Source: Candidatus Aldehydirespirator sp.
Lineage (GTDB): Bacteria > Actinomycetota > Acidimicrobiia > Acidimicrobiales > Aldehydirespiratoraceae
Assembly (NCBI GenBank): GCA_965221185.1
Contig: OZ244866.1
Location: 2,469,838 to 2,533,837 of the forward strand
Length of the DNA: 64,000 nt
Direction of reading: 5' to 3'
The translations under genes were made by a program, and so were the position numbers. Below are positions 4,140-21,741 of the stretch, piece by piece (positions within the stretch are counted from its first letter, which is position 1; each line of letters opens with the position of its first letter). The notes under the pieces are model-generated. The model ran no database searches and was not told the origin of the DNA. It worked only from the letters and a program-made list of their open reading frames with translations.

Positions 4140-4190
4140 CGGCCTGCTGTCCTTGCTTCGATGCGGCGGTCCCGGCCGCCGTCGCTGCGG

Positions 4191-4466: not shown

Positions 4467-4514
4467 TGACACCCTCCTTTGGGTTGCAGCACAAGATGTG
4501 TCGTGCTGTTTCAT

Positions 4515-4673: not shown

Positions 4674-5477
4674 TCAGGCCGGCGGGGTGTCGCCGATGGC
4701 TTTCTTGACCGAGCCCAGAAGGTCGGCGATGGCGGCCTTCACCGATTCCTGGTGAGCGGCGAGGGCCTGGAACTCCTGGCCCGAGCGGATCGCAGCCCGG
4801 CCTCCGAGCACGTCGAAGGCCCTATGGACCATGCGCTTGTTGATCTGGGACAGGTCCGTGGCCACGCCGGCTATGCGCACCGCAACCGCCAGCACGGCCT
4901 CCTCCAGCTGCTCGGGCGGGTGGGCCCGGTTGGCCCAGCCCATGCGGGCTGCCTCGGCGCCGCTCACGGAGTCGCCGGTGAGCATGGCCTCCATGGCGTG
5001 ACGCATTCCCATCAGCGGCGTGTGGTATTGCCAGTCCGGCGGCGAGGCCACCCGCACCACCGGATAGCCGATGCGGGCGTCGTCGGCCACGTACACCAGG
5101 TCACAGGCCGCGGCCAGCTCGGTGCCACCGGCGTAGGCGTACCCGTGCACCTGCGCGATGACGGGCTTGGCCAGGTCCCAGATGGAGAACCAGCCGTCGC
5201 TGGCCTGGCGGGTCCACTGGCCGTCGCCGGGAGCCGACGGGTAGGGCGGGTCGTCCATCAGCCCGCCCGACAAGTCGTAGCCCGACGAGAAGCACGGTCC
5301 CGCGCCCCGCACGATGGCGACCCGGATGCCGGGGTCCTCGTCGAAGCGGTGCAGGGCGTCGAACAGCGCGGCCCGCAGCGGTGTGGAGATGGCGTTGCGC
5401 TTGTGGGGGCGGTTGAGGGTGATGCGGCGGACATGCTCGGCCGGCTCGTCGATGAGGATCATCTGCTCATCCGTCAT
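4674..5477 (-). CDS. enoyl-CoA hydratase/isomerase (crotonase) family protein
   Basis: ATG 5477 forms an ATGA overlap with the stop of the upstream LLM gene. Crotonase motifs RGAGPCFSSGYDL and VHGYAYAGGTELAAACDL. The 5' 183 codons of track ORF 4674..6026 are an Arg/Gly-rich off-frame overlap. Confidence 0.9.
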   Translation of the reverse strand: MTDEQMILIDEPAEHVRRITLNRPHKRNAISTPLRAALFDALHRFDEDPGIRVAIVRGAGPCFSSGYDLSGGLMDDPPYPSAPGDGQWTRQASDGWFSIWDLAKPVIAQVHGYAYAGGTELAAACDLVYVADDARIGYPVVRVASPPDWQYHTPLMGMRHAMEAMLTGDSVSGAEAARMGWANRAHPPEQLEEAVLAVAVRIAGVATDLSQINKRMVHRAFDVLGGRAAIRSGQEFQALAAHQESVKAAIADLLGSVKKAIGDTPPA

Positions 5478-6532
5478 GTGTCTGCTCCTCCGGTGTCTCT
5501 GGTGCCGGCCAGCTCGGCCATGAGCTCGAGGCCCTCGTCGCGACCGCACCGGATTATCACCCCTGTCAGCCCGGCCGGAACGGCTCCGGGCCACCGGGCC
5601 CGGATGCGCTGGCGCGAGCCGAGCAGGGACTGCGAGTCGATGTAGTCGTCTGGGACCGCAGCAATGGCGTCGTCTCGACGACCGGCCCGCCACTGCTCCA
5701 CGATCCGCGCCGAGGCCTCCGGCCACCCCCGCCGGGCCATGGCTTGTGCGTGGAAGTTGTGGGTGTCGCTTCCCATTCCGCCGACGTACATCGCGACCGT
5801 CGGCTTGCGGGCGTCGAGCGCGGCCTGCACGTCGCCGGTGATCTCGACCGAGAGCGACCCGAACGCCTCGAGCTCGGGCCGGAGGCCGTCGTGGCGGCGG
5901 GCCAGTCCCCGCTGCAGGGGCTCCCGGTAGGTCTGGGCCCCGTCGGGCCCGTAGCCCATCGGCAGCCAGCCGTCGGCCACCTCGGCGGCCAGGGCCACGT
6001 TGCGGGGTCCTCCGGCCGCGATCCATATCTCGATGCCGGGCGACGCATGCAGGATCGACTTCAGCGGCTTGCCCTGGCCCAGCGAGCCAGGGCCGTCGTA
6101 TGGCAGCCGGATGGCGGCACCGCAGTGGGTTACGGGCTCGTCGCGGGCCAGCACCTTGCGCATGATCGCGGCGTAGTCGCGCAGCTTGGCCGTCCGCGAC
6201 CCCCAGGCCGCGCCGTGCCAGCCCTCCACCACCTGGGGCCCCGACACGCCCAGACCGATGATCGTGCGCCCGCCCCCTGCGAGCGCGTCGATGGTCATGG
6301 CGTGCATGGCGGTGGCCGCGGGGCTGCGAGCGTCGATCTGCACCACACCGGAAGCGAGCTTGATCCGGCGGGTGTGCGCGGCCAGGTAGGCCAACGGCGA
6401 CAGCGCGTCGGCGCCGTAGGCCTCAGCCGTCCACACGCTGTGGTATCCGAGCCGCTCCGCGAGCTGCACCGCGGCCACGGGCACCTCGAGCGCGGCGCCC
6501 CGGTACAGGTCCAGGCCGAGACCCAGCTTCAC
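5474..6532 (-). CDS. LLM-class (luciferase-like) F420/flavin-dependent oxidoreductase
   Basis: 352-aa ORF from GTG 6532. LLM-type sequence (LGYHSVWTAEAYGADA, GLGVSGPQVVEGWHG). Confidence 0.85.
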   Translation of the reverse strand: MKLGLGLDLYRGAALEVPVAAVQLAERLGYHSVWTAEAYGADALSPLAYLAAHTRRIKLASGVVQIDARSPAATAMHAMTIDALAGGGRTIIGLGVSGPQVVEGWHGAAWGSRTAKLRDYAAIMRKVLARDEPVTHCGAAIRLPYDGPGSLGQGKPLKSILHASPGIEIWIAAGGPRNVALAAEVADGWLPMGYGPDGAQTYREPLQRGLARRHDGLRPELEAFGSLSVEITGDVQAALDARKPTVAMYVGGMGSDTHNFHAQAMARRGWPEASARIVEQWRAGRRDDAIAAVPDDYIDSQSLLGSRQRIRARWPGAVPAGLTGVIIRCGRDEGLELMAELAGTRDTGGADT

Positions 6533-6655
6533 GTCGATCGGTCCCCTGACCCCGCCGCCAGCGTCATTCTGCGCGGCCCGACGATTGGATCCACCCCGCC
6601 GCGCCGCCTGCAGTCCTCATCCGCTCCGACCCTAGTGTGGCTACGCTCCCTCTTC

Positions 6656-7840
6656 GTGAAGGCACTGCGCTTCTCGCGCCAGGAGGCCCGCTACGCGGCC
6701 GCGGCGCTGGCTTCGCGGCTGCGGCCTGGAGCGGGGGCGGTTTGGGGGCCGCTCAAACTGATCGACGACGATCCGCCCGAGCTGCCCGGCGAGGACTGGC
6801 AGCGGGTCTACCCGAGGCTCACCGGCATCTGCGGCTCGGACCTGGCCACCATCGACGGCCGCTCGGCGCGCTACTTCGAGGACTACGTGTCGTTCCCGTT
6901 CGTGCCCGGCCACGAGATCGTGGCCGACACCGCCGACGGGCGCCGGGTGATCGTCGAGCCGGTGCTGGGGCACGCGGCGCGCGGCTTCGGCCTGCCCTAC
7001 CCGGGGGCCGCGCCCGGCGACGGCGACGACTACCGGCACCTCATGAGCGGCCATCTGTTGCCGGGGCTGCAGACCGGCTTCTGCAAGTCCACCGGCGGGG
7101 GCTGGTCCACCGAGCTGGTGGCGCACGCCTCGCAGCTCCACGACGTCCCCGACTGGATGAGCGACGAGCTGGCCGTGATGATCGAGCCGGTGGCGGGGGG
7201 CGTGCACGCCGCTCTGCGCTCCGGCGCCCGGCCGGGCGACACCGTGGCGGTGGTCGGGGCCGGGACCATGGGGCTGGTGGCGGTGGCCGCCCTGCGGGGC
7301 CTCACCGAACCGGCGTCGATAATGGTCGGGGCCCGGTACTCGACCCAGCGGGCGCTCGCGCTGGAGTTCGGCGCCGACGCGGCCGTGGAACCCGGCGAGC
7401 TGAAGCGGGCCGTTCGCCGGGCCACCAGATCGTTCATGGTCGGAGACCACCTCTCGGGGGGTGCGGACGTGGTCATCGACGCGGTGGGCTCGTCGGCCTC
7501 GCTGGCCGAGGCGCTGTCGCTGTGCCGGCCGAGGGGCCGGGTCGTGATGCTGGGGATGCCGGCCACGGTCACGGTCGAGTTGACCGGCCTGTGGCACCGG
7601 GAGGCTGAGCTGGTGGGGTGCTACGCCTACGGCACCGAGGTCCGCGCCGACGGCCGGCTCACCACCAGCTTCGAGCTGGCCATGGAGCTCGCCGGCAAGA
7701 TCGCCGTCGACCGGCTCGTGTCGGACCTGTACCCGCTCGACCGCTACGCGGACGCTCTGGGCCACGCGGCTGAGGCGGGGCGCCGCGGTGCGGTCAAGAT
7801 CGCCTTCGACATGCGAGGCGAGCGCCGCCGTGGCAACTGA
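6656..7840 (+). CDS. zinc-dependent alcohol dehydrogenase (MDR) family protein
   Basis: GTG 6656 gives MKALRF..., in frame with track ORF 5744..7840, whose 5' part is antisense to the LLM gene. Motifs GICGSDL, PGHEIVA and VVGAGTMGLVAV. GTG 6635 is an alternative start. Confidence 0.85.
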   Translation: MKALRFSRQEARYAAAALASRLRPGAGAVWGPLKLIDDDPPELPGEDWQRVYPRLTGICGSDLATIDGRSARYFEDYVSFPFVPGHEIVADTADGRRVIVEPVLGHAARGFGLPYPGAAPGDGDDYRHLMSGHLLPGLQTGFCKSTGGGWSTELVAHASQLHDVPDWMSDELAVMIEPVAGGVHAALRSGARPGDTVAVVGAGTMGLVAVAALRGLTEPASIMVGARYSTQRALALEFGADAAVEPGELKRAVRRATRSFMVGDHLSGGADVVIDAVGSSASLAEALSLCRPRGRVVMLGMPATVTVELTGLWHREAELVGCYAYGTEVRADGRLTTSFELAMELAGKIAVDRLVSDLYPLDRYADALGHAAEAGRRGAVKIAFDMRGERRRGN

Positions 7841-7943
7841 CCACACCGGCGACAGCGACAACGGCTACGACATGCGCGACGGGCGCCGCCGTGGCAACTG
7901 ACCTCGTCCGCAGCCGCAGCAACGGCTACGACGCGGTGGTGAT
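7822..7943. repeat. imperfect 61-bp tandem duplication across the ADH stop / oxidoreductase start junction
   Basis: gcgccgccgtggcaactgacc occurs at 7822 and 7883, and caacggctacgac at 7859 and 7920. The period is 61 bp. Confidence 0.85.
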
Positions 7944-9219
7944 CGGCGCAGGAGTGATCGGCGCGGCCACCGCCTTCGAGCTGGGGCGGCGGGGCCGGCG
8001 AGTGCTGTGCGTGGACAAGCTCCCCGGCGCCGGGTTCGGCTCGACCGTCAACTCGTGCGCCATCGTGCGCTTCACCTACTCCACCTACACCGGCGTGGCC
8101 ATGGCCTACGAGGGACTGCAGTACTGGCTGGAGTGGCCCGCGTACCTTGAGGCCCCCGACGAGCTGGGCATCATCGAGTACCGGCAGTGCGGGATGGCAA
8201 CCCTCAAGGACCCCGGCGGCCACTACCTCAAGGTGCTCCCCCACTTCGACGCCATCGGCGTGGCCTACGAGGAGTGGTCCACCGACGAGCTGCTCCGCCG
8301 GATGCCGATCGTCGACGCGGGGGTGTTCGGCCCGCCCAAGCGGCCCGACGACCCAGACTTCTGGGCGGACCCGACCGAGCAGCTGCCCGGAGCGGTGTTC
8401 ACCCCCGAGGCGGGCTATGTGAGCGATCCCCAGCTCACCACCCACAACCTGCAGCGGGCCGCGGAGGCCGCCGGCGCCGAGTTCCGCTTCTCCACCGCGG
8501 TGACCGCCATCGGGCGGGCCGGCGGCCGGGTGACCGGCGTGATCCTCGACGGCGGCACCACCGTGGCCGCGCCGGTCGTGGTCAACGTGGCCGGCCCGCA
8601 CTCGTATCTGATCAACCGGACAGCCGGCGTCTACGAATCGATGAACATCAAGACCCGGGCGCTGCGCCACGAGGTCCACCACACCCCGGGTCCGGCTGAC
8701 TTCAACTACGAGCGGGACGGCTTCAACATCGCCGACGACGACAACGGCATCTACTTCCGGCCCGAGACCGGCAACCACATCCTGGTGGGCAGCACAGACC
8801 CCCGCTGCGACCCCCAGGACTGGGTGGACCCCGACGGCTACGACCAGCGCCTCGCCCCGGACCAGTGGGAGGCGCAGGTGCTGCGGCTCAACCGGCGCCT
8901 GCCGTCGCTGGGCGTGCCCCACGAGCGCAAGGGCGTGGTCGACCTCTACGACGTGAGCGACGACTGGATCCCCATCTATGACCGCACCGACCTCGACGGC
9001 TTCTACGTCGCCATCGGCACCAGCGGCAACCAGTTCAAGAACGCCGGGGTAGCCGGGCACTGCATGGCCGAGCTGATCGAGGCGGTGGAGGCCGGCCACG
9101 ACCACGACCACGACCCGCTGGTGGTGGAGGGCCGCTACACCGGCCTGCCCATCGACATGGCCACCTTCAGTCGCAACCGCGAGGTCAACCCCAACTCCTC
9201 CATGTCAGTCCACGGCTGA
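7891..9219 (+). CDS. FAD-dependent oxidoreductase (DAO family)
   Basis: 442-aa ORF with an N-terminal dinucleotide-binding motif (YDAVVIGAGVIGAATAFEL). Confidence 0.85.
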   Translation: MATDLVRSRSNGYDAVVIGAGVIGAATAFELGRRGRRVLCVDKLPGAGFGSTVNSCAIVRFTYSTYTGVAMAYEGLQYWLEWPAYLEAPDELGIIEYRQCGMATLKDPGGHYLKVLPHFDAIGVAYEEWSTDELLRRMPIVDAGVFGPPKRPDDPDFWADPTEQLPGAVFTPEAGYVSDPQLTTHNLQRAAEAAGAEFRFSTAVTAIGRAGGRVTGVILDGGTTVAAPVVVNVAGPHSYLINRTAGVYESMNIKTRALRHEVHHTPGPADFNYERDGFNIADDDNGIYFRPETGNHILVGSTDPRCDPQDWVDPDGYDQRLAPDQWEAQVLRLNRRLPSLGVPHERKGVVDLYDVSDDWIPIYDRTDLDGFYVAIGTSGNQFKNAGVAGHCMAELIEAVEAGHDHDHDPLVVEGRYTGLPIDMATFSRNREVNPNSSMSVHG

Positions 9220-9285
9220 CCAGATGAGGCGGCGGACGTGCCGACGCCGCTCGCTATGCGGATGCTTTGATGTTATGATGCGCGT

Positions 9286-9522
9286 GTGCGCACTACCGTG
9301 TCAATACGAGACGAGACTTACGAGGAAGCCCGGCGGATAGCGTTCGAATCACGCCGGACGCTCGGTGCGGTCATCAATGAACTCCTTGCCGAGGGTCTCA
9401 AGCAGGTGGCCCGACCACCGGCGCGTCGCCGACTCGGACAGCTCCGCGGCACGATCACGATCGCCGACGACTTCGACGACACGCCTGCAGAAGTCCTCGA
9501 CTCGCTCGACGACCCGCTCTAA
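9286..9522 (+). CDS. vapB: type II antitoxin, VapB-like
   Basis: 78-aa ORF (MRTTVSIRDETYEEARRIA...). Its stop overlaps the ATG of the PIN gene (TAATG). TATGAT at 9274-9279 lies 6 nt before the GTG start, consistent with a leaderless transcript. Confidence 0.8.
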   Translation: MRTTVSIRDETYEEARRIAFESRRTLGAVINELLAEGLKQVARPPARRRLGQLRGTITIADDFDDTPAEVLDSLDDPL

Positions 9523-9902
9523 TGGCCGCGCTCCTGCTGGACACGCACGTCCTGCTCTGGGCCAACGAAGCGCCGGAACGACTCTCGAGCGAGGCCGTGG
9601 CCGCACTGGAGGATCCGGCCAACGACCTCCTGGTGTCGTCGATCTCGGTCGCTGAGATCGAGATCAAGCGCCGGCTCGGCAAACTGACCCTGGAACACAG
9701 CTGCCACACACTCGCCGAACAGCTCGACGCGCTCTGGCTCGACCTCACGGCAGTTCACGCGATGGCTCTGCGAACACTGCCGTACCTGCACGCCGATCCG
9801 TTCGACCGGCTCCTGATCGCCCAGGCCATGGCCGAGGGCCACACCCTCGTCACCACCGACGAGAAGGTGCTCGCCTACCCGATTTCCACCCTCACCGCGT
9901 GA
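9522..9902 (+). CDS. vapC: PIN-domain ribonuclease toxin VapC
   Basis: 126 aa with PIN acidic residues in context (LLLDTHVLLW, SISVAEIEIK, DPFDRLLIAQA, LVTTD). Confidence 0.9.
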   Translation: MAALLLDTHVLLWANEAPERLSSEAVAALEDPANDLLVSSISVAEIEIKRRLGKLTLEHSCHTLAEQLDALWLDLTAVHAMALRTLPYLHADPFDRLLIAQAMAEGHTLVTTDEKVLAYPISTLTA

Positions 9903-10051
9903 CGACCTGATCCGCACCGCCATCTCCGATGCGCCGGATGCCAACAACTTCCGGCGACCACCGGGCGGCGACATCTTTTCAGTCGCTGCGGTCATGCGAC
10001 TTGTAGGCTCCGAATCCGCCGCCGGCCGCCTAAACGGGAAAGTGCGCAACC

Positions 10052-11890
10052 ATGGACGTCCAACAGATAGTCGGTACGGCCCGCACTGTCAGTCAACTCC
10101 TCTCGAACAGCCGCTAGGGCCTCGACTTCTACCAGCGCGAGTACAGCTGGGAGGAGGCACAGGTCGGCGACCTAATCGAGGACTTGGCCGACCGCTTCCG
10201 CAACGAGTTCGACCCCGGTCACGAACGATCTGACGTAGATTCATACCGCCCCTACTTCCTAGGGCCGATCGTTACGGTCCAGCGCGACGGCATCCGGTAC
10301 CTAGTCGATGGGCAGCAGCGGATCACGACCCTGAGCCTCCTGCTCATCCACCTACGCAGCTCCCTAGCCGGGACGCACCCGAACGAGAAGGCGGCACTCG
10401 ACTCGCTGATCTTCTCGTGGAAGTTCGGGAAGGAGACATTCAATCTCCACGTTGAACAACGCGAGGAGTGCCTTCGAGCCATCCTCAACAGCGGACACTT
10501 CGATGCGGACGGACAGCCGGAGTCGGTCCGGAACCTCTCCAATCGATACCAGACCATCGTTCACCGCTTCCCCGAAGACCTGGTCGGCGAAGCGCTCCCC
10601 TACTTCTCCGACTGGCTCCAACACCGAGTCCTCCTCGTAGACATCGTCGCGTCAGATCAGGACATGGCCCTCGAGATATTCGAGACCATGAACGACCGAG
10701 GCCTCCGGCTGAGCAACACCGACATGCTCAAGAGCTTCCTGCTTCCGCAGGTGCGCGACGAGCAGGCGATCCGCGACCTCAACGACCGATGGCGCCGCCG
10801 GATCACGGAACTGGCCGACTTGGAGCCCAATGCCGACGCGGAGTTCGTGAAGGCCTGGCTGCGGGGTAACTACGCCCTGACGCAGCGCGAGCGCAAATCG
10901 AGGGCTTCGCCACGCGATTTCGAACTGATCGGCACGGCATTCCACAAGTGGGTTCGAGACAACCGGAGCACGATAAGGCTCAGCAAGCCCGCCGATTATC
11001 GACGCTTTGTGGAAAACGAGTTCATGAGGCTCAGCGACCGCTACCTGCAACTGCTCCGATCCACACACGAGTCCGACGACGGCCTCGAAGCCGTGTACCA
11101 CAACGCCCACGCCGGGCTCACGCTGCAACTGCCGGTGATCCTGGCGGCTGTGACCCCTGACGATGATGACCAGACGTTTAGAGACAAGGCCGCTCTCGTC
11201 GCGGGAGCTCTTGATATCTACGTCGTTCGACGTATGGCCAGCTACCGCAACTTCGGCTACTCCACCGTCGTCTACACGATGTTCAACTTGATGAAGGAGT
11301 TGCGGAACCGACCGACTGAGGAGGTCAGAGAAGTTCTTGCCCGGTGGCTCGACCGCGAGCACGAGCGGCTCGACGGGTTCCTCACGCTTCGGCTCCATCA
11401 GCGCAACCGCTGGCATGTCCACTACATCCTGGCTCGGATAACAGCCTGGATGGACGCGGAGTTGGAGACCGGGACGACCTTCTTCAACTACTTCGTGGAA
11501 CGGCGTAGGCACCCATTCGAGGTGGAGCACATCTGGGCCGACCACTTCGACCTGCACTCCCACGAATTCGACAACCCCTACGAGTTCGCAGAGCACCGCA
11601 ACAAGATCGGCGGGCTGCTACTGCTCCCCAAGGACTTCAACGCCAGCTACGGCGCCATGGGCTACGAGGACAAGGTGAAGCACTATTTCCGCCAGAACCC
11701 TCTTGCCCAGTCGCTTCACCACAGAGCGTACAAGAACAACCCGAGCTTCTTGAGGCTTCGAGAGGCCCACGGTCTCGCCTTCCGGACGTACCGGTCATCG
11801 TTCACCAAGGCAGACATCGACGAGCGCCAGGCGCTGTACCGCGACCTGGCCGAGATCATCTGGGCACCAAGCCGCCACGGACTGTGTTGA
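10052..11890 (+). pseudogene. GmrSD-like DUF262/DUF1524 (type IV restriction-like) gene interrupted by an in-frame TAG
   Basis: ATG 10052 gives MDVQQIVGTARTVSQLLSNSR-TAG(10115-10117)-GLDFYQREYSWEEAQVGDLIEDL, which continues in frame into track ORF 10184..11890. That ORF carries the DGQQR motif and the C-terminal His-Me finger region (FEVEHIWADHF, NKIGGLLLLPKDFN). GC is visibly lower than in the flanks. Confidence 0.8.
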
Positions 11891-11895
11891 CGGCC

Positions 11896-11928
11896 CGGCG
11901 AGCCGCCAGCTGCGACGGCCGCTCGCCG
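11896..11928 (+). terminator. possible stem-loop terminator after the GmrSD-like gene
   Basis: CGGCGAGC-17 nt-GCTCGCCG starts 6 nt after the TGA stop. There is no clear U-tract. Confidence 0.3.
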
Positions 11929-12109
11929 CTGTGTTGGGAACGAAACACACGATCACACGCTCGGGTGCTGGTTGAAGGTGAACAATGACTCGGACTGATG
12001 GGGTGGGGACTGATGATGGCCGGACCGGCTCAGTGCAGGCGCCACGGGGACTCGCAGGCTCGGGCGGCTCAAGAGTATGCAGTTGCGCATGTTTATTTGT
12101 GATGGATAT

Positions 12110-12388
12110 ATGCAGAAACAGCGGGTGACGATCACGGTGGACGAGGCCCTTCTCGACGAGGCGAACAGCGCGGTTAGCGCGGGGCGCTCCCGCTCGGTCA
12201 GCGAATGGATCGGCGAGGCGATGGCACAGCGGCGGGACAGAGATCATCGACTCGCCGTGCTGAGCCGATTGCTCTCCGAGTACGAAACCGAGCACGGCTT
12301 CATCACCGATGACGAGATTGCGGAGCAAGCCGAGCGGGATCGGGACGCGGCCGCATCGTTTCGAGTGGCGACTCGACGAGTCGGATGA
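12110..12388 (+). CDS. ribbon-helix-helix (CopG-like) antitoxin
   Basis: ATG 12110 gives MQKQRVTITVDEALLDEANSAV.... ATGA overlap with the following PIN-type ORF. Confidence 0.7.
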   Translation: MQKQRVTITVDEALLDEANSAVSAGRSRSVSEWIGEAMAQRRDRDHRLAVLSRLLSEYETEHGFITDDEIAEQAERDRDAAASFRVATRRVG

Positions 12389-12540
12389 GCGACACTCTGG
12401 ACTCGGGTGCGTTCCTCGCGCTCGAGGGCAACGACCGCCGGATGTGGCGCCGCCTCAAGGGCTCTCTGCAGGCCGCAAGCCCGCCCAAGACCCACGGCGG
12501 CGTGGTCGCGCAAGTATGGCGCGGCGGACCCGGCCGGCAA
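12385..12540 (+). pseudogene. 5' fragment of a PIN-domain (VapC-like) toxin gene
   Basis: MSDTLDSGAFLALEGNDRRMWRRL...VVAQVWRGGPGRQ looks like a PIN N-terminus. Similarity stops near 12540, where an IS21-type fragment begins on the opposite strand. Confidence 0.6.
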
Positions 12541-13000
12541 ACACGACCGGACCCAGGGCGCAGACCCCGGTCCCGGATGCGGCGCACGAACGTCGAATAC
12601 GACGCCCCATAGCCCAGCGCCCGCGCCTCCGCGAACAGCACCGTCGCCCGCACATGGGGGTCCTCCGCCAGCCGCTGGCGCACATAGTCCGCCACCGCGT
12701 CGAAGGGATCGACAGAGCTGCTGCGGCGCACCCCCGCCTCGCGGTCGCCGGCCAGATGGGCGCGCACCGTCTTGTGGTCAAGGCCCAAATGGCGGGCGAT
12801 CGCCGAGATCGACCATCCCTGCCCTCTCAGTGCGTGAATCTCCACGTCTTCTCCATGTGTGGTCATCTGAGCCGGGGCTCCTCTGGTCGCTGAACATCTC
12901 TCAACGCCCAGCACAGAGGAGCTCCACCCCAACCGGGTGGATCCCCCGCAGGTGGGGAACTTCAGTGATCAGAACTGGGGAATTTCAGTGATCGCCGTCA
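12541..13000 (-). mobile_element. IS21-family insertion sequence remnant (left end plus about 104 N-terminal codons of IstA)
   Basis: ATG 12866 with AGAGGAG upstream gives MTTHGEDVEIHALRGQGWSISAIARHLGLDHKTVRAHL...VLFAEARALGYGASYSTFVRRIRDRGLRP, an IstA-type HTH N-terminus. Two 18-bp direct terminal repeats, tggggaa(c/t)ttcagtgatc, lie at 12953-12970 and 12976-12993. No istA C-terminus, istB or right end is present. Confidence 0.65.
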
Positions 13001-13126
13001 GCTCGAGCGAGGCTTTCGCACACCGAACGCGCACCGGAGCCCTCGTGCCACAGATTTGAACTCAGAGCACCGAAGGCATTGAACACCCGGCGGCGCGTCG
13101 CCCCGAGGACTCCGAAGTGTCGGGGT

Positions 13127-13681
13127 CTACGGCTGCTGGTCGGGGAGGAGGGCTTGATAGGCGTCGAGGGTCTCGCGGTTGAAGCAGACGAAGCGCACTA
13201 CGCGGACCTGGGTCGGCGCCGTTCGCACCGCGTGGACCGCGATCGCTGCCGCCGGCTGGACCGGAAAGCCGTAGACGCCGGTGGAGATGGCCGGGAACGC
13301 CACGGACTCGGCGCCGACCTCGTCGGCTCGCGCCAGAGACTCCCGGTAGCACGACGCCAGCAGGGCGGGCTCGTCCTGCTCACCTCCTCGCCATACAGGG
13401 CCGACAGTGTGAATGACCCAGCGCGCCGCGAGGCGGTAGCCGGGCGTGATCTTGGCGTCACCGGTGTCGCAACCGCCGAGACCCCGGCAGAACTCAAGCA
13501 GCTCGGGACCGGCAGCCCGATGAATGGCCCCGTCCACGCCCCCGCCGCCCAGCAGCGATGAGTTGGCTGCGTTGACGATCGCGTCCACCCCCTCGACCGT
13601 GATATCGCCGAGGTCGACCTCTAGGCGGGGGCCGCCAGCATCTGAGGGAGCTGACAAGCCGGAACTGTCCATGCCCGTCAT
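13127..13681 (-). CDS. macro-domain protein (ADP-ribose / O-acetyl-ADP-ribose processing)
   Basis: Motifs [34 protein letters not shown] and [14 protein letters not shown] prefer ATG 13681 as the start; the ORF stays open up to 13780. Confidence 0.85.
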
Positions 13682-13784
13682 TCTGCCCGCCGTCGAATCG
13701 TCCACACCTCGCTCGGCGGCGAACCGCTTCCGACCGACCCGGCACCGTGAGACCCGGAATGGGCCGAGCCTTGCGGGCAACTCT

Positions 13785-15320
13785 CTAGGCGAGGGTGAAC
13801 AGCGGCTCGGATTGGTGGGTTTCGGCCGATGAGCGTGCGTTCGGGTCGGCTCGACCTGATGCCAGCCCGGCTACGGAACCCATCCCAGGGTGCCTTGCTG
13901 CCCGCTGGGGCGGGAGTCCGTGGGCTGGCGGGGGGTCGGGGGCGTGTGCGGGTCCGTGGCGGATCCGCTCAGGCGGCGCGATCGTGTAGAGGCCCCTACC
14001 GTCGGGCATCACCCGCCAACCGTGGTGGTGCACCTTCTGGTGGCAGGCCCAACACAACAACATCATGTTGTCGATGTTCGTGGGCCCGCCCTCAGAGACT
14101 GGTCTGATGTGATGGCTCTGGCACAGCCACATGTCGGCGCCACAGCCCCCGCAGGCCCCATAAAGGGCTCGCAGCGCGCTCATCTGGGCCTGGGTGGCGA
14201 GCCGTTTGGCGTGGCTGTGCCACAGAGGCAGCCCCTGATGACTGAACACCACCCCTTTGATCCGGGCGCCGCAGAAGTACTCCTCAAGCACGCTCACAGG
14301 GATCACGCCGCCCCCAGCGACCTCCGCGAACGCCGCAGCGCCATCCGCGCTGAGATGCTGCACGATGGTGATGTCAGCCGACGGCCGGCTCGCACACCCG
14401 CACTTCCTGCCACCTGCGGAGCCGCCTTTGGCGGTCCCGCTCACATCGCGGCCGTTGCCGATATCAGACTCACTCATGACACCGACACCGCCACTGGCCC
14501 GGCTCCCACCGCCATTGCCGATATCAGACTCGCTCATGACCGTGCTGGCGTTGGTGGCGCCGCGGCCATGTCCGGTGGGTGGCGCGCTTGTGGCGCTGGA
14601 GTGGATGCTTCCGTGCGAGGTCAAGGTGTCGAGCGCGTCGGCCATGCGCTGGTTGAGGCTGCGCTTCTCCCCGCCAGCACTGTGCAAGTCCAACCGACGC
14701 AGCCGCTCAGCCTCCAACAAGAACCGCTTGCGCACCTTGGCCCCAGTAACCGGATCCAACTCGCCCCGCAGGTGCACCATGCCGTCGTCGCCGTCCCAGA
14801 TGTTCAACCGACGTCGAGCCCGCTGCCTGCGATAGGCGTCTTCGCCGCCGATGGCTTGGCGCCGTGCAGCCCACCGGCCCGCCTCGCGGACAAAATGCTC
14901 TTGCGCAAGCCCGGCGGCCATCTCTAGCAGTTCGGTGTCGCTCTCAACCTGTTCGGCGCTGGTCTTGTCACTGGCAGCCGCAAGCACCCTGGCGTTCGCA
15001 ACAGAGATGCCACCGGTCTCGACCGCGTCACGCACCGCGGGCATCGACTGCAGGCTGTGCGCGGTCCTCACCTGACCGGCGGCTTCGCGACGGGACAGCC
15101 CGGCAGCCTGCGCTAGCACTCCAACACCGCCGTCGCCGTGACGCTCACGCCCGGCAACCCCGGCAGCGGTATCGGCCTGCAACACCGCCAGCTGCCCGCC
15201 GAAGGTCTTGCACTCGGTCAGAACGGTCCTCAAGTCCGAGGTCGGGGTAGCCGGGTCGTTCACAAAACGGATCAACTCCGCCAGTCCCTCCCGCACCTGT
15301 CGTACCGTCCCAATACCCAT
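13785..15320 (-). CDS. DUF222 / HNH endonuclease (13E12-repeat-like) protein
   Basis: C-terminal HNH region ([36 protein letters not shown]) and a DUF222-like N-terminal part. Internal 60-nt duplication at 14451-14540 ([10 protein letters not shown] twice). I prefer ATG 15320 as the start. Confidence 0.85.
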
Positions 15321-15326
15321 AAACAC

Positions 15327-15356
15327 ATGATGCCATAGGGGTGTGACAATTGTCAA
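15327..15356 (-). promoter_or_regulatory. putative promoter of the HNH gene with embedded palindrome
   Basis: On the minus strand: TTGACA (15356-15351), 18 nt, then TGG-CATCAT (15332-15327), then 6 nt to ATG 15320, which implies a leaderless transcript. The perfect palindrome TGACAATTGTCA (15344-15355) overlaps the -35. Confidence 0.45.
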
Positions 15357-15460
15357 GCATTTACATGATTTTTCAAACCAACTGAACGTTCACCACTCTA
15401 CTCCAGCCGATCAGCGCCGCGAGACCGGTAGGCGCACTTGCCAGCGCGTACTGTCGGGGC

Positions 15461-15964
15461 GTGCCGCGGTTGTTCGTCGCGCTCTGGCCGCCTGAGAATG
15501 TGGTGCGGGAGCTGGCTGGGATGCCCCGGCCTGAGGTGGACGGTCTGCGCTGGACCAAACCCGAGCGGTTGCACATCACCCTGCGGTTCCTGGGCCAGTG
15601 CGACGAGGCCGAGGCGGCCCGAGCGCTGCGCCGGGTCAGCTTCGCGCCGGTGCGGGTCGCGCTGGGACCGTTGCTCAAGCGCCTGGGACGCGGCATCGTC
15701 ATGTTGCCGGCCAGCGGCGTGGACGGTCTCGCCGCTTCGGTAACGGAGGCGACCGACCGCATCGGCCAGCCTCCTCCGGAGCGTCGCTTCACCGGTCACA
15801 TGACCGTCGCTCGCTTCCGGCGCGATCCACCATCGGGCCAATGGCCGCCCGAGGGCCTGCCCACGCTCGATGCCTCGTTCACCGCATCGGACATGGCTCT
15901 GGTACGCGTGGAGCCTTCCGGCGCTTACGTGAACGTGGAGCACTTCGACCTGAGTCCTCCATGA
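15461..15964 (+). CDS. thpR: 2H phosphoesterase, RNA 2',3'-cyclic phosphodiesterase / 2'-5' RNA ligase family (copy 1)
   Basis: 167 aa with two H-x-T motifs (HITLRF, HMTVARF). Confidence 0.85.
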   Translation: MPRLFVALWPPENVVRELAGMPRPEVDGLRWTKPERLHITLRFLGQCDEAEAARALRRVSFAPVRVALGPLLKRLGRGIVMLPASGVDGLAASVTEATDRIGQPPPERRFTGHMTVARFRRDPPSGQWPPEGLPTLDASFTASDMALVRVEPSGAYVNVEHFDLSPP

Positions 15965-15978
15965 TGTAGCTCCGACTC

Positions 15979-16830
15979 TCAGCCGGCCGCGATGAGCGCA
16001 ACCGCCACCAGCGCGACGCCGAGTCCCAGCACCTGGACCCTTCGCAACTTCTCGCGGAATACGAGCCAAGCCCAGAACACGGTCACCGCAGTGAACAACG
16101 ACGTGAGGACGGCCGCCACCGACGTAGACCCCACTCGGGTCGCCGTCAGGAACAGCGCATTGCCGACGGTAACCAGTGCCGCAATGGCGAGCACGTGAGG
16201 CCACACGTCACGAGACACCGACCTGGGAATCCCCCTTGTGGCGATGACGAGCGCTAGCACCACGAACCCGGACCCGCGTGCGGCCACAATCGGCCACAGG
16301 CCGCCGTTCTCCGACGTCCGGGAAAGGCACAGGAACAAGAGCCCGATTCCGAGTGCCCCGCCCAACCCGTAGAGCAGGCTGGATCCGACGCTGCCCCGCT
16401 GATCGGAGCGGGCGATGCTGACGAGCCCAATGGCCACCAGTCCAAGAAGAATCCCTGCGATCGCCCTGATCGACAAATCGTCATCACCGAAGAGCGATTC
16501 GACGATGACGGGCAGAGCGGCCGCGCCCACACCAGCCACCGGCGCGGCCACAGTGACCCGAGCGCAGGCGTATCCCGCGTACAGCGCGACCAGCCCGGCC
16601 GACACTCCGACACCGCCCAGCGCCCCCCAGGCCGCATCGGTGGCCGTGACCTCCCCTACTACGACCAACGCCGCGACGAACGCCATCGCGAAGCCAGCGA
16701 GGTTCGAAGAGGCAGTCACCACAACCGGCTCGGCTCGCCGGCTGCTCAAACCACCCAGAAAGTCCGACGTCCCCACTGACAGCGCGGCCAACAAGCCCAA
16801 GAGCACCGTCACAACGACATCACCTCGCAA
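15979..16830 (-). CDS. EamA/DMT-family membrane transporter
   Basis: 283-aa, highly hydrophobic protein with about 10 predicted helices arranged as a duplicated 5-TM pattern. Confidence 0.75.
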   Translation of the reverse strand: MRGDVVVTVLLGLLAALSVGTSDFLGGLSSRRAEPVVVTASSNLAGFAMAFVAALVVVGEVTATDAAWGALGGVGVSAGLVALYAGYACARVTVAAPVAGVGAAALPVIVESLFGDDDLSIRAIAGILLGLVAIGLVSIARSDQRGSVGSSLLYGLGGALGIGLLFLCLSRTSENGGLWPIVAARGSGFVVLALVIATRGIPRSVSRDVWPHVLAIAALVTVGNALFLTATRVGSTSVAAVLTSLFTAVTVFWAWLVFREKLRRVQVLGLGVALVAVALIAAG

Positions 16831-17010
16831 GTCTGGTGGGCGGTGCGGTCATTGTCGACTGCTGCCAAACGACAGTGCGGGCGCAGCCCTCCCAGCCGTG
16901 GTGATGTCCCCTCTGACAGCAGCCGGAACCGATTGGCGGTTTGACCGCTCAGTCCTGGCGCGGCCCGAGCGGTCCGGTCGCGAAAGGTCGCTCTGGCATA
17001 ATGTCCGGAA

Positions 17011-17508
17011 ATGCCACGGCTGTTCGTTGCCGTCTGGCCGCCCGACGATGTGTTGGGGGAGCTGGCCGCAATGCCCCGGCCCACAGTGGACGGTTTGCGT
17101 TGGACCAAACCCGAGCGGCTGCACATCACCCTGCGGTTCCTGGGCCAGTGCAACGAGACCGCGGCGACCGCGGCACTGCACCGAGTGAGCTTCGCGCCGA
17201 TCAGAGTGACGCTGGGACCGACGCTCAAGCGCCTGGGGCGCGGCGTCGTGATGTTTCCGGCTAGCGGCGTGGACGGCCTTGCCGCTTCGGTCACGGAGGC
17301 GACCGACCGCATCGGCCAGCCTCCCCCGAAGCGTCGCTTCACCGGTCATATGACCGTGGCCCGCTTCCGGCGCGATCCGCCATCGGGCCAATGGCCACCC
17401 GAGGATCTGCCCACGCTCGATGCCTCGTTCACCGCGCCGGATATGGCCCTAGTGCGCGTGGAGCCCTCGGGCACCTACGTGAACGTGGAGCGCTTTGGCC
17501 CTCGCTGA
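17011..17508 (+). CDS. thpR: 2H phosphoesterase, RNA 2',3'-cyclic phosphodiesterase family (copy 2)
   Basis: 165 aa, collinear with copy 1 and highly similar over most of its length (MPRLFVA(L/V)WPP..., HITLRFLGQC, HMTVARFRRDPPSGQWPPE). CATAAT at 16997-17002 lies 8 nt before the ATG. Confidence 0.85.
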   Translation: MPRLFVAVWPPDDVLGELAAMPRPTVDGLRWTKPERLHITLRFLGQCNETAATAALHRVSFAPIRVTLGPTLKRLGRGVVMFPASGVDGLAASVTEATDRIGQPPPKRRFTGHMTVARFRRDPPSGQWPPEDLPTLDASFTAPDMALVRVEPSGTYVNVERFGPR

Positions 17509-17618
17509 CGCGGCAGGAGCGCCACGGTCAGTTCGGGGCCGGGGCTCAGTCGAGCAGGGCGTCGGAGCGATCGAGCAGGTTCATCGGTGCTACCTGCTGC
17601 ATCTGTCCTGCTTCGGCG

Positions 17619-18569
17619 TCACTTCTCCCAGTGGGGAGTCCAGTCGCCTTCCAGTTGCATTGACATCCTGGCGTCGTCGGCTACACGCCGGGCCACGCAC
17701 ATCTCTCCCGCATCGAGGCCGTAGCGAGCCGCAGCCCGCTCGAAGGCGCTCCGGGCCGCCGCGGTCACCGGCAGGTCCGCGTCCACGCTCGACTCGAGGT
17801 CGGCCAGCAAGCCCAGATCCTTGACGCACAGAGCGAGCGGAAACGACGGGTCATAGTGACCGGCGAAGATACTGGGGGCGTCGTGACGGGCAACAAAACT
17901 GTCACCCACGCTGTTAAGGATGGACTCCCACAGGATCCTCAACTCCACGCCGTTGGCCACGCCCACCGCGAGACCCTCGCCCAGGACGGCGGCGGCCGCA
18001 AACCACAACTGGTTGGTCACGAGCTTCACGACGTTGCCGGAACCGAGCGGACCGCACTCGATCACGGTCCCGAGAATCTCGAGCAGGGGCCGAGCCACGG
18101 CCACTGGCTCCGGCTCACCTCCCACGAACAGGGTGAGCGTGCCGAGGCGGGCGCCGTCAACTGCGCCCGTCACCGGCGAGTCGACCACGGCCACGCCTGC
18201 GGGTGCGGTCGAAGCCAGCCCCAGCACCAGTTCTCGGCTGTTGGTGGTGAGATCGACCCACACTGAGCCGGGTCTCATCGCGCCGAGCGCACCGCCGGCC
18301 CCGGCCATGACCGCCTCCACCTGTGGGGGTCCGGGCAGTGACGTCATGAACAGATCGGTGTCGCGAGCGCAGTCGCGAGCCGACGATGCGGCCGTGGCCC
18401 CGGCGTCCACCGCCGCGGCCAGCGCATCTGCGTCGAGGTCGTAGGCCCTGACGTGGTAGCCCGCGGCCACCAGCCGCCGGCACATCGGTCCCCCCATCGT
18501 CCCGAGTCCCACGAACCCGATCCTGCGACGGGCCCGAGCCTCTCCGGATGCGGGCGCTGAGCCGTCCAT
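17619..18569 (-). CDS. NAD(P)-dependent beta-hydroxyacid (3-hydroxyisobutyrate-type) dehydrogenase
   Basis: N-terminal Rossmann motif IGFVGLGTMGGPM, with family-typical central and C-terminal regions. Confidence 0.85.
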   Translation of the reverse strand: MDGSAPASGEARARRRIGFVGLGTMGGPMCRRLVAAGYHVRAYDLDADALAAAVDAGATAASSARDCARDTDLFMTSLPGPPQVEAVMAGAGGALGAMRPGSVWVDLTTNSRELVLGLASTAPAGVAVVDSPVTGAVDGARLGTLTLFVGGEPEPVAVARPLLEILGTVIECGPLGSGNVVKLVTNQLWFAAAAVLGEGLAVGVANGVELRILWESILNSVGDSFVARHDAPSIFAGHYDPSFPLALCVKDLGLLADLESSVDADLPVTAAARSAFERAAARYGLDAGEMCVARRVADDARMSMQLEGDWTPHWEK

Positions 18570-18654
18570 GAGCCCAGAAAGCTACCGCAGAGCACACGGC
18601 CGATCCCACGGTCAGATGTCCAGTTCCCGCAGCCAGCGAAAGGGCCGCCACAAC

Positions 18655-19881
18655 TCAGACCAAGTCGAGGGGATAGCGCGAGAGGCGTTCGTTGCCGGTG
18701 TCGGTGATGAGGACCTGCTCCTCGAGCTTGACGCCCTCGCCGCCGGACTTCGGGCCGACAAAGGCCTCGACGCACATCACCGTGCCCGGCTGCAGTTCGG
18801 TGTCGTAACCCTCCCTGCCCCAGCGCTCACGCGTGTACACCGACGGGTACTCGTCGCACAGGCCCACGCCGTGCGACAGCAGGGTGTAGCAGTTGTAGTG
18901 CTCCCGCGACGGATGCCACGACCGCTCAGACATCTCGCGCACCGACGCGCCCGGCTGGTGCAGCTCGATGTTTCGCTCGATCTGCTCCCTGGCCAGAGAC
19001 CACACATCGTTCTGGGCCGGTGTCGGGCGCCCGCCGCCGCACAGCCAGGTCCGGGAGATGTCCACGCACGCTCCGTATGCGCACACCATGTCGGTGTCGA
19101 AGCCCATCAGCTCACCAGCCTGCACGCGGCGGCTGCTGGCCTCCTGGTACCAGGGGTTGGTGCGCGGGCCCGACGCAAGCAGCCGGGTCTCGATCCACTC
19201 CCCGTAGCGGGCGAAGTTGCCGGCCTGCAACTCTGCCCACAGACCCATCTCAGTGATGCCGGGCTCGAAGACAGCCCGCATGTCGTCGATCGCCGCCTCG
19301 CAGGCATGGACGGCGCAGCGCATCGCCGCGATTTCCTCGGAGGACTTCACCACGCGCGCCTCCTCCATGAGCGCCCACGCGTCGACGAGGCTCACGCCGC
19401 GCTTCTCCAGCGCTCGCACGCCGATCAGGTCGATCTGGTCGACGGCGAGCCGCACATCGCCCCGGCCGTGCTCAGCCAGCAGGCCGGCGATCTCTTCCGC
19501 CCATCGGTCCGCGACCTCCTCGGCCCGGGACCCCGCATAGAAGTAGATGTGCGACAGCCCCGGGCGGATCTCGTCCACAACCTCGGAGTGCGTGTTCAGG
19601 AACTCTCCCTTGGAGAACTCGAACATCACCACCGGGCCGTCGGTGGCCACAAGGGCGTAGCGCACGGCGTTGTGCATCGTCCAGATCGACATGTTGGTGG
19701 TGTCGGTGGCGTAGCGGATGTTGAGCGGGTCGTACAGCAGCGCGGCGTCGCATCCCGCGGCCCGCAGCTGCGCCCGCACCCGCTCCAGGCGGTAGCGCCG
19801 GATCGCGGGGCGGTCCGGCAGCCGAAGCCCGGCCGCAAGCCACTCCGCCTCCAGCTCCGGTCCCGGCCCCAGCGCGTGCAT
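18655..19881 (-). CDS. M24-family metallohydrolase (creatinase / Xaa-Pro peptidase fold)
   Basis: ATG 19881 gives MHALGPGPELEAEWL.... Creatinase-like N-domain and pita-bread C-domain (GFDTDMVCAYGACVDISRTW, HGVGLCDEYP, MCVEAFVG). The substrate cannot be inferred from sequence. Confidence 0.8.
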   Translation of the reverse strand: MHALGPGPELEAEWLAAGLRLPDRPAIRRYRLERVRAQLRAAGCDAALLYDPLNIRYATDTTNMSIWTMHNAVRYALVATDGPVVMFEFSKGEFLNTHSEVVDEIRPGLSHIYFYAGSRAEEVADRWAEEIAGLLAEHGRGDVRLAVDQIDLIGVRALEKRGVSLVDAWALMEEARVVKSSEEIAAMRCAVHACEAAIDDMRAVFEPGITEMGLWAELQAGNFARYGEWIETRLLASGPRTNPWYQEASSRRVQAGELMGFDTDMVCAYGACVDISRTWLCGGGRPTPAQNDVWSLAREQIERNIELHQPGASVREMSERSWHPSREHYNCYTLLSHGVGLCDEYPSVYTRERWGREGYDTELQPGTVMCVEAFVGPKSGGEGVKLEEQVLITDTGNERLSRYPLDLV

Positions 19882-20147
19882 GTTGCGCTCGCCATGGTCG
19901 AGCAGCCAATCTGGCGGCTCTGTTCGAGCCGACCCGATCCTCGGTCGGTGCCTCAGTGAGTTCACGGCGGAATTCTGCCGTACGATCAGCGCATCTCGAT
20001 GGACCCCGAGCACGGATCGCCGTCCGGCACCCCCGCGAGGATCACAGTGGTGATGAATCCGTGAGCCGGTCAATCGCCGGGACTAGCTTCGACGATGTGG
20101 CAGACACCGCCGCAGGGCGCCCGACAGCCGCTTCGCGGGACTGAGTC

Positions 20148-21665
20148 ATGGTCAGGCGAGGCAGGCCCCGCGTCACGACCCGGTCGTCCGCGATCGCGCA
20201 GCTGCCCTGGCGTTCTGTCGAGAACCCGCACGGAACCCTGCAGGTGCTCGACGATGAAGGGCTCTCCACCATCCACTCCGCTTCGATGCGGGTGCTCGAG
20301 GAGCTGGGCATCGAGCTGTGGTCGCTGGAGGCCCGCAAGCTCTTCGCCGATGCCGGCGCGATTGTCGAGGGCGAGGTCGTGCGGATCGGCCGCGACATCG
20401 TGGAGGCGGCGGTGGCCAGCGCCCCCGCCGAGTTCACGCTCACGTCCCGCAATCCGGCCAAGGAGCTTCGCATGGGCGGCCGGAGCATGGCGTTCGGCCT
20501 GGTGGCCGGCCCGGCCGCGGTTCATGATGAGATCGCCGGCCGGCGCAGCTCCAACATGGCCGACTACGAGAACTTCATCAGGCTCGGCCACTACTTCAAC
20601 GCCATCCACATCATCGGCAACCAGGTCGTCGCGCCTATGGAACTGCCCGCCAACACCCGCCACCTCGACGCCTACCGGGCCAACCTGACGCTGTCGGACC
20701 TCTCGTATCACTGCACGTCGATCGGCCGGGGAAGGGCACTCGACGGGATCCAGATGATGGCGATCAGCCGGGGCAACACCCTCGAGGAGATGGCGGCCTC
20801 GCCCGGGGTGACCACCATCATCAACGTCAACTCGCCGCGCCGCTTCGACCCCGAGATGGCAAACGGCCTGATGACCATGGCCGAGCACGGCCAGCCGGTG
20901 TCGGTGACTCCGTTCACGCTGATGGGGGCCATGGCCCCGGTGACGCTCGCAGCCGCGCTGGTGCAGCAGAACGCCGAGGCCCTCTTCGGCATCGCCCTCA
21001 CCCAGCTCGTCCGTCCCGGCGCGCCGGTGCTGTACGGCGCGTTCACCTCCAATGTCGACATGCGCTCGGGCGCCCCCGCGTTCGGCACGCCGGAGCAGGT
21101 CAAGGCCAACGTGGCATCGGGGCAGCTGGCCCGCCGTTACGGACTCCCCTATCGGGCATCGAACTCGAGCGCGTCCAACGTTGTCGACGCCCAGGCCGCT
21201 TACGAGACACAGATGTCGCTGTGGGGCTGCATCCTGGGGGGAGCCAACCTCGTGTACCACGCGGCCGGATGGATGGAGGGTGGGCTGCAGGCCAGCTACG
21301 AGAAGCTGATCCTCGACGTGGAGATGCTCCAGCAGACGATGGAGTTCCTAACGCCTCTTCCCTGCTCCGGTCCCGACCTCGCGTTCGAGGCCATGCAGCG
21401 GGTGCCCACCGGCGGCCACTTCTTCGGCGACGAGCACACCCTCGAGCGCTACCAGACCGCCTTCTACCCGCCGCTGATCTCCGACTGGCAGAACTATGGC
21501 GCCTGGGCCGACTCGGGCGGGCTCAACGCCACCCAGCGGGCCACGGCAATCTGGCAGGCCGCGCTGGAGGAGTACGCCGAGCCGCCTTTGGACAGCGCCC
21601 GGCGCGAGCAGCTCGACGAGTACGTCGAGCGCCGCAAGCTGGAGATCGGCGACGGCGAGCCGTAA
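20148..21665 (+). CDS. trimethylamine methyltransferase (MttB) superfamily protein, non-pyrrolysine type
   Basis: 505 aa with no in-frame TAG. MttB-family sequence throughout (LDDEGLSTIHSASMRVLEELG, PFTLMGAMAPVT, GGHFFGDEHTLERY). Confidence 0.9.
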   Translation: MVRRGRPRVTTRSSAIAQLPWRSVENPHGTLQVLDDEGLSTIHSASMRVLEELGIELWSLEARKLFADAGAIVEGEVVRIGRDIVEAAVASAPAEFTLTSRNPAKELRMGGRSMAFGLVAGPAAVHDEIAGRRSSNMADYENFIRLGHYFNAIHIIGNQVVAPMELPANTRHLDAYRANLTLSDLSYHCTSIGRGRALDGIQMMAISRGNTLEEMAASPGVTTIINVNSPRRFDPEMANGLMTMAEHGQPVSVTPFTLMGAMAPVTLAAALVQQNAEALFGIALTQLVRPGAPVLYGAFTSNVDMRSGAPAFGTPEQVKANVASGQLARRYGLPYRASNSSASNVVDAQAAYETQMSLWGCILGGANLVYHAAGWMEGGLQASYEKLILDVEMLQQTMEFLTPLPCSGPDLAFEAMQRVPTGGHFFGDEHTLERYQTAFYPPLISDWQNYGAWADSGGLNATQRATAIWQAALEEYAEPPLDSARREQLDEYVERRKLEIGDGEP

Positions 21666-21741
21666 GCAGCGCCGCCGACTCGCCGCTCTGGATCAGACAT
21701 CGACAGGCGCTCGTCGGCGGCCACGCGCTTCGACCGAAAGC

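Follow-up and report, generated by a model that had tools for sequence, protein, structure and literature searches.

The window analysed here is the whole 64-kb stretch of Candidatus Aldehydirespirator sp. DNA. This report concerns the locus between its genes for a DAO-type FAD oxidoreductase (7891-9219, plus strand) and a HIBDH-type dehydrogenase (17619-18569, minus strand), where toxin-antitoxin (TA), restriction, insertion sequence (IS) and HNH genes lie close together. The locus is probably a variable slot flanked by core genes that holds an old, decaying, genus-wide accessory set and has been reshuffled by homologous recombination between lineages. The set would comprise vapBC, a GmrSD-like type IV restriction gene, a ribbon-helix-helix (RHH)-PIN pair and a DUF222-HNH gene, which each lineage keeps, breaks or deletes independently, and the content of the slot would move between lineages via homologous recombination in the flanking core genes and not by site-specific integration. 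Positions 8863-16031 appear to share very recent ancestry with one related genome (L065), and positions 15975-21657 recent ancestry with another (L073).

The window was mapped by listing of open reading frames (ORF), gene calling based on GC3 (the G+C content of third codon positions), and Pfam, NCBIfam and PADLOC scans. When species-representative genomes were searched with the DAO protein, approximately 34 loci were obtained from metagenome-assembled genomes of Acidimicrobiales, with DAO proteins 83-94% identical, and many of these genomes bear the name Candidatus Aldehydirespirator. Closely related contigs were reached by exact-protein look-ups, and window proteins and the relatives' own ORFs were placed on the loci by tblastn, so that about 40 related loci were compared overall; all of the genomes are metagenome-assembled. 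Exact look-ups of the window DAO, HIBDH and long-form 2H_b proteins returned no record, while shorter called forms were found in clusters, and these misses are probably due to differing called gene starts. The host is a sponge-symbiont bacterium of the Acidimicrobiales (Aldehydirespiratoraceae / UBA11606 group). The Aldehydirespirator-type group are sponge symbionts in which restriction-modification and TA systems have been reported to be enriched (PMC11706023).

The alignment of related loci revealed a conserved backbone with the order ADH-DAO-amidase-variable slot-(SAM methyltransferase)-macro-EamA-2H-HalD-like oxygenase-HIBDH-M24-MttB. In the window it runs from a Zn-ADH gene (ending at 7840, plus strand) through DAO to genes for an M24 creatinase/prolidase-type peptidase (18655-19881, minus strand) and an MttB-family methyltransferase (20148-21665, plus strand). 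In about 18 species representatives the macro, EamA and 2H genes follow DAO-amidase as a group, with native composition, and the right half of the locus (13.1-17.5 kb) is therefore native and not cargo. Four relatives without cargo (L006, L011, L015 and L019) have nothing between amidase and macro, and in these macro-EamA-2H still precedes HalD-like-HIBDH. The accessory DNA is confined to 9268-13000, with vapBC, a GmrSD pseudogene, an RHH antitoxin gene, a PIN stump and an IS21 end, plus the DUF222-HNH gene. Across the related loci the same intervals are variably occupied by vapBC, GmrSD, RHH-PIN, HNH, helicase-nuclease genes, Fic or a MazF-like pair; examples are NERD/UvrD-like and DEDDh-DinG-DpdF-like helicase genes in L068, and Fic with IS copies in L071. 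Accessory modules share 71-85% amino acid (aa) identity with those of the window, similar to the core macro (74-83%) and EamA (73-79%) proteins, which makes them old residents of the genus and not a fresh import.

The apparent edges of the locus, at 9220 and 17510, exist because native genes were lost there. Relatives carry an amidase gene of about 471 aa after DAO, where the window has only 47 bp (9221-9267), and a HalD-like 2OG-oxygenase-type gene of about 300 aa between 2H and HIBDH, of which the window keeps the last seven codons and the stop (RSDALLD*, 24 nt, 17546-17569, minus strand). The amidase scar is the same in L065, while the HalD-like deletion is common to the window and L073. 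Other amidase traces are some 20 codons in L068 and 42 codons fused to a GmrSD fragment in L061. A separate rearrangement was seen in L008 (15919-16879), where a MazF/PemK-like toxin and an RHH antitoxin replace most of HalD-like and HIBDH, of which a fused ORF is what remains; the neighbourhood has here received one more TA insertion accompanied by a deletion.

The first-pass annotation had read positions 9220-17510 as a single horizontally acquired 8.3-kb defence/mobile island, inserted between DAO and HIBDH and now eroding. TA, restriction, IS and HNH genes are indeed concentrated here and three modules are damaged, and all of the features it listed are present in the sequence (vapBC, amber-interrupted GmrSD, RHH with truncated PIN, IS21 end, macro, DUF222/HNH and the 2H pair), although it overlooked the EamA-family transporter gene between the 2H genes (15979-16812, minus strand) and two further lesions, the amidase scar and the HalD-like remnant. 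The lower GC content that it saw at 9.9-12.3 kb is also genuine: the window is high-GC actinobacterial DNA with a mean of 0.685, and values fall to 0.59-0.62 at 10-12 kb. In codon usage, only the two small antitoxin genes, vapB (0.71) and RHH (0.72), have a clearly low GC3, about 2 standard deviations (SD) down, whereas that of the GmrSD-like gene is 0.81, just 0.7 SD under 34 other window genes. Since second codon positions of this gene have a G+C content of only 0.38 while GC3 is nearly normal, its low GC stems mostly from amino acid composition.

A single island is nevertheless unlikely. Macro-EamA-2H keeps its place and native composition in about 18 related species, which for the right half is the very outcome that the first-pass annotation had named as refuting its proposal, and no empty site lacking the whole block was seen, since the cargo-free relatives retain these three genes. 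Both edges are deletion scars of native genes, and the cargo modules occur at the same site genus-wide, at a divergence like that of core genes or as remnants, which is at odds with a recent foreign insertion. The window holds no tRNA genes, and no long direct repeat was found at the borders of 9.2-17.5 kb, the single long repeat being the 2H pair; the first-pass annotation had itself remarked on the lack of an obvious tRNA or repeat there. When all ORFs in 9.2-17.5 kb were scanned against Pfam, NCBIfam and PADLOC, no integrase or recombinase gene appeared, and an Rfam scan of 8.5-18.6 kb (E<=0.1) gave no match. Searches of plasmid and phage DNA with 9220-13002 matched nothing beyond the IS21 piece and a single distant DUF262 gene, and PADLOC, another of the checks proposed, recognised nothing but the GmrSD-like gene within the window region. 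What stands of the island proposal is that roughly 9.27-13.0 kb is accessory, of defence/TA type, damaged, variably present and subject to horizontal exchange.

The case for exchange by homologous recombination comes from comparison with the two closest partners, L065/L067 (ERZ25072670) and L073 (ERZ25070987). The window is collinear with L065/L067 over 8248-16865, and in the segment shared with contig ERZ25072670:ctg254997 (8863-16031) there are 24 differences in 7169 bp (0.34%; 99.66% identity), whereas the 652 bp before 8863 contain 76 differences and the 834 bp after 16031 contain 91. Further to the right, HIBDH is about 80% identical between these two and M24-MttB 94-100%, after which identity returns to about 80%. 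Identity between L073 and the window is approximately 98.5% over 15975-21657 and 72-85% outside that segment. At positions that distinguish L065 from L073, the window is L065-like up to 16003 and L073-like from 16032, with a short mixed patch at 16150-16243, and this switch of partner places a crossover in the 3' end of EamA (16004-16031). The exchange boundaries are probably homologous crossovers inside DAO (8863-9045) and EamA (16004-16031).

Purely vertical inheritance with differential loss, the differences in identity reflecting gene-specific evolutionary rates, would agree with the presence of the modules at the same site across the genus, and with the even 90-94% identity of L072 to the window over flanks and cargo. 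It is improbable because the identity steps are abrupt, 0.34% versus 11% within tens of bases and inside single genes (DAO, EamA), because the window matches different partners on either side of 16004-16031, and because synonymous divergence (dS) in a single genome pair varies between about 0.01 and 0.63 from one gene to the next.

The crossover in EamA also accounts for the two 2H phosphoesterase genes, 2H_a to the left of EamA (15461-15964, plus strand) and 2H_b to its right (17011-17508, plus strand), the latter in the native position. Gene order is HNH-2H-EamA-HalD in L065, L070 and L072, and EamA-2H in L073 and most species; joining these two orders inside EamA gives 2H_a-EamA-2H_b. The pair, previously described as a duplication, is a chimera produced by recombination: 2H_a shares 99.6% identity with the only 2H gene of L065, and 2H_b shares 97.6% with that of L073, while the window copies match one another at 84%. 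An in-situ origin, in which a 2H-EamA unit was duplicated in tandem and one EamA copy was then lost, was considered first, in view of the direct repeat of about 500 bp at a spacing of 1550 bp and the occurrence of both gene orders in relatives. It was rejected after a three-way comparison of the window, L065 and L073 and is highly improbable, given that each copy has its nearest match (about 98-99.6%) in a different genome and that flank identity changes partner inside EamA.

A metagenome assembly artefact, in which a contig chimera of co-occurring strains created an unreal mosaic and an unreal second 2H copy, has to be weighed because all of the genomes are metagenome-assembled, several contigs have low coverage, and the L065 contig breaks off some 600 bp left of the block that it shares with the window. 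However, two sequencing runs yielded Logan contigs that are 100% identical to the window over 9141-10693, including the amber codon of the GmrSD-like gene, and over 15745-17149, including 2H_a-EamA-2H_b and the crossover, so neither the amber nor the double-2H junctions are products of one assembler. The window and L065 copies also differ at 24 sites and so come from distinct molecules, and an artefact is accordingly quite improbable.

The RHH-PIN pair and the adjoining IS21 end record an older step of the decay. The RHH/ParD-like antitoxin gene is intact (12077-12388, plus strand, with a likely start at 12110) and is followed by an ORF of 75 codons (12385-12612, plus strand) of which only the first 54 are PIN-derived (12385-12553), corresponding to codons 1-54 of a 126-aa PIN gene; the identical truncation occurs in L065. 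The pair is intact in L061, L068 and L072, and the full-length orthologue of L061 scores 26 bits against Pfam PIN (cut-off 23.6), although a PDB sequence search with the full-length toxin gave no meaningful match. The RHH gene of the window appears to be an orphan antitoxin, a state in which TA decay usually ends. Abutting the PIN stump is the left-end fragment of an IS21-family element (~12554-13000, minus strand), which spans positions 2-99 of 294 of NF033546, i.e., about 100 codons of istA that cover the N-terminal helix-turn-helix region of IstA. Two 18-nt terminal repeats lie at 12953-12993, the end begins with TG, and istA genes of actinobacterial plasmids match the fragment up to 13000-13002.

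The helix-turn-helix region, the TG end and the subterminal repeats are as in other members of the IS21 family, but only some 450 bp remain of an element of roughly 2.5 kb. The fragment is internally truncated, with no istB, catalytic domain or right end, and is presumably dead. Its outer end (~13000) joins sequence conserved in L061 and L027. This conserved junction, together with the PIN cut after codon 54, indicates that IS21 inserted downstream of PIN and that a later deletion took most of the element along with the 3' part of the toxin gene. Since L065 has the same structure, the truncation predates the last exchange. A PIN breakpoint in L073 (8885-8904, joined directly to the EamA 3' end) falls within about 10 bp of that in the window (12547-12556, joined to IS21); the two junctions differ, and may reflect a fragile spot or a coincidence.

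The GmrSD-like gene (10052-11890, plus strand, 612 codons from the ATG at 10052) encodes a putative DUF262+DUF1524 type IV restriction protein, with matches to Pfam GmrSD_N (1.3e-20) and GmrSD_C (2.5e-6), the DGQQR motif within LVDGQQRITTL, and HEC-06, Orf5 and SspE as its best PADLOC matches. It shares the two-domain architecture and the motif with GmrSD / BrxU / SspE-type enzymes, but there are no BREX or Ssp partner genes nearby and the window copy is a pseudogene. Its single nonsense codon is an in-frame TAG at 10115-10117, codon 22 of 612, where L065, L068, L071 and L007 have TAT or TAC (Tyr). The window allele is most likely a null, since the amber would remove the conserved N-terminal YQRxYxW region of DUF262. 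The ratio of nonsynonymous to synonymous substitution (dN/dS) relative to intact alleles is 0.14-0.18, which indicates that the gene was under purifying selection until very recently and that the amber, which is private to the window, is itself recent. The broken copies still have a dN/dS of about 0.15.

Only four or five intact alleles were found, those of 612 aa being in L068/L069, L071 and P0002, with the gene also intact in L007; elsewhere it is broken or fragmentary. The 99.7% identical copy in L065 lacks the amber and has a -1 frameshift at nt 104, 38 nt past the amber codon, L072 has lesions at nt 801 (-1) and nt 1055 (-7), and L029 has one at nt 386 (+1). The 90% identity cluster contains fragments of 506, 291+251, 142 and 122 aa beside the 612-aa intact alleles, and internal or terminal fragments occur in L061, L020 and several cluster members. 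In L061 (10689-11081) the 42 amidase codons mentioned above run in frame into 238 bp of internal GmrSD sequence with 97% identity to window 10424-10661, while neighbouring genes of L061 are 78-91% identical to the window; the GmrSD piece seems to have taken part in a later exchange than the sequence around it.

Within the reading of the locus as a core-gene-flanked slot, the order of decay in the window follows from which lesions are shared. PIN truncation, the IS21 stump and the loss of amidase, all shared with L065, preceded the last exchange, the loss of the HalD-like gene arrived with the right-hand segment shared with L073, and the GmrSD amber is private and recent. An earlier idea that all of the damage was older than the L065 exchange was rejected, as the amber codon is TAT in L065, which has its own lesion.

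Several points weigh against this reading. The Logan contigs may share the biological sample of the window, and they exclude assembler chimeras better than strain mixtures. Baseline divergence from the L065 and L073 genomes is known from only about 2-25 kb of flanks; if these genomes were nearly identical to that of the window overall, the similar segments would be the clonal frame and the divergent flanks the imports, i.e., recombination of the opposite polarity, and any assignment of donor and recipient is uncertain. Single-base indels in low-coverage metagenome contigs, such as the L065 frameshift (contig labelled 8x), may be errors. The contrast of 99.7% with 89% identity was at one stage taken as proof of interspecies transfer, a view that was softened because these genomes share about 98% identity in M24-MttB as well, giving a mosaic with an uncertain baseline.

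Error is a less likely explanation for the substitution that produced the window amber and for the 7-bp deletion of L072. The GmrSD-like gene of the slot may have been inactivated several times over, in independent events, in sponge-symbiont lineages that occur together, through recurrent selection against an otherwise well-maintained enzyme, a proposal that is tentative and rather doubtful at present. A clash with DNA-modification systems circulating in the same symbionts is a possible cause. Were this so, the decayed cassette might still spread between species by flank recombination, carried by the intact vapBC pair, an idea that is just as tentative. Repeated independent inactivation is the sole point of the locus worth following up. 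In L068/L069, which have an intact GmrSD-like gene, two genes lie between EamA and 2H (14227-21355), one for a NERD/UvrD-like helicase of 595 aa (PADLOC C3a187, 9e-45) and one for a 1730-aa DEDDh exonuclease-DinG-DpdF/RecQ-like protein (DpdF 5e-121); they are a candidate defence pair in a second slot of the neighbourhood.

The vapBC pair is the part of the cargo in best condition. A vapB-type antitoxin gene of 78 aa (9286-9522, plus strand) overlaps the 126-aa vapC PIN toxin gene (9522-9902, plus strand) at TAATG. VapC matches Pfam PIN (3.9e-11, 44 bits, cut-off 23.6) and has the acidic residues expected of VapBC type II systems (D7, E44/46, D92/95 and D113, as read from the sequence). VapB has no Pfam match and departs from such systems in matching the VapB model NF050009 weakly (21 bits, cut-off 60), although the overlap and its size fit an antitoxin. 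Complete vapBC occurs in L004, L007, L008 and L068, where vapB has the same length, and remnants are found in L001, L003, L016, L071 and L072. As both genes are intact, length-conserved and under purifying selection (dN/dS of vapC against the L068 allele is 0.11), the pair is probably an active TA system, and it may help to keep the segment in the genome. The 3' ends of the amidase ORFs of L071 (6173-6353) and L072 (9499-9676) consist of vapB-3'/vapC-5' sequence, 89% identical to window 9419-9599, and vapBC was therefore largely deleted there, its remnant being fused to the amidase frame.

The DUF222-HNH gene (13785-15320, minus strand, ATG at 15320, 511 aa; Pfam DUF222 2.9e-19, HNH 2.5e-10) has an AT-rich, promoter-like region of its own, as had been noted. 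A near-consensus promoter-like site, TTGACA-18-CATCAT, lies at 15356-15327 and ends 7 nt before the ATG, in a patch (15321-15400) of only 39% GC, an arrangement that suggests a leaderless, self-promoted transcript. A second match with the same hexamers occurs on the minus strand at 9275-9304, antisense over the start of vapB. The gene is found in about 15 relatives' loci, on either side of macro, and is likely to be a self-promoted selfish element. The REP13E12 / DUF222-HNH repeat genes of mycobacteria, which are listed as repetitive elements (PMC10589994), resemble it in domain architecture, in variable presence and placement among close relatives and in having their own promoter-like signal; unlike these, it occurs once in the 64-kb window and shows no terminal repeats, and copies are only 64-76% identical between species, hence without sign of recent mobility. 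Within the gene (14451-14540), a 30-nt unit is repeated at 60-bp spacing, duplicating a 10-residue peptide in the DUF222/HNH linker, and L065 has an additional TGG at 14551, so this linker appears to be length-variable.

The remaining genes of the right half belong to well-known families. The macro-domain gene (13127-13681, minus strand) is of the O-acetyl-ADP-ribose deacetylase type (NF001664, 243 bits, cut-off 200; Pfam Macro 2.9e-46). Both 2H proteins retain HxT motifs (HITL and HMTV) and match Pfam LigT_PEase and 2_5_RNA_ligase2 above the cut-offs, while TIGR02258, at 63.5 bits, is just below its cut-off of 65.7. Macro and 2H proteins are enzymes of ADP-ribose and 2',3'-cyclic phosphate metabolism and, together with EamA, appear to be native core genes unrelated to the cargo.

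Two further segments of the window stand out. M24 and MttB (18900-21700) are 94-100% identical to both L065 and L073 (MttB dS ~0.04), as against only 72-85% for HIBDH and for the ABC-transporter genes that lie past 21.7 kb, and 18900-21700 looks like a second segment that was exchanged separately or is sweeping. Positions 1-9000 have a GC content of 0.72-0.75, compared with about 0.68 for the remainder, and include a sharp low-GC patch (0.60) at 4.2-4.8 kb, the counterpart of which in relatives is a WXG100/ESX-type region.

With conserved flanks and variable defence-type content across the related loci, the locus has the behaviour of a small defence hotspot flanked by core genes and shows no hallmark of an integrative island. 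Defence islands and hotspots between core genes were reportedly described by Makarova et al. in 2011. The locus resembles them in its variable defence/TA content between conserved chromosomal genes, its lineage-specific occupants and its turnover by flank recombination. It differs in that the slot is small and interleaved with conserved non-defence genes (macro, EamA, 2H), in that most occupants are old, decaying residents of the genus and not fresh systems, and in that the host is an uncultured sponge symbiont; later surveys of defence hotspots concerned enterobacteria and Pseudomonas. Every component comes from a known family, and flank-mediated exchange, pseudogenisation and IS-associated deletion are likewise known as processes, so the locus is an ordinary kind of thing, here documented in unusual detail.

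For annotation, the locus is a warning that a defence-like cluster with a GC dip is insufficient to set the borders of an island, as borders picked by eye were here the deletion scars of native metabolic genes. Should the recurrent inactivation of the GmrSD-like gene prove real, it would offer a testable example of a defence gene whose benefit and cost alternate. More broadly, the locus would represent a well-resolved case in which small defence/TA cassettes of uncultured, host-associated bacteria are maintained, decay and move without any machinery dedicated to mobility, homologous crossovers in core genes shuffling cargo and native genes together, creating apparent "duplications" and transferring already-dead genes between lineages.

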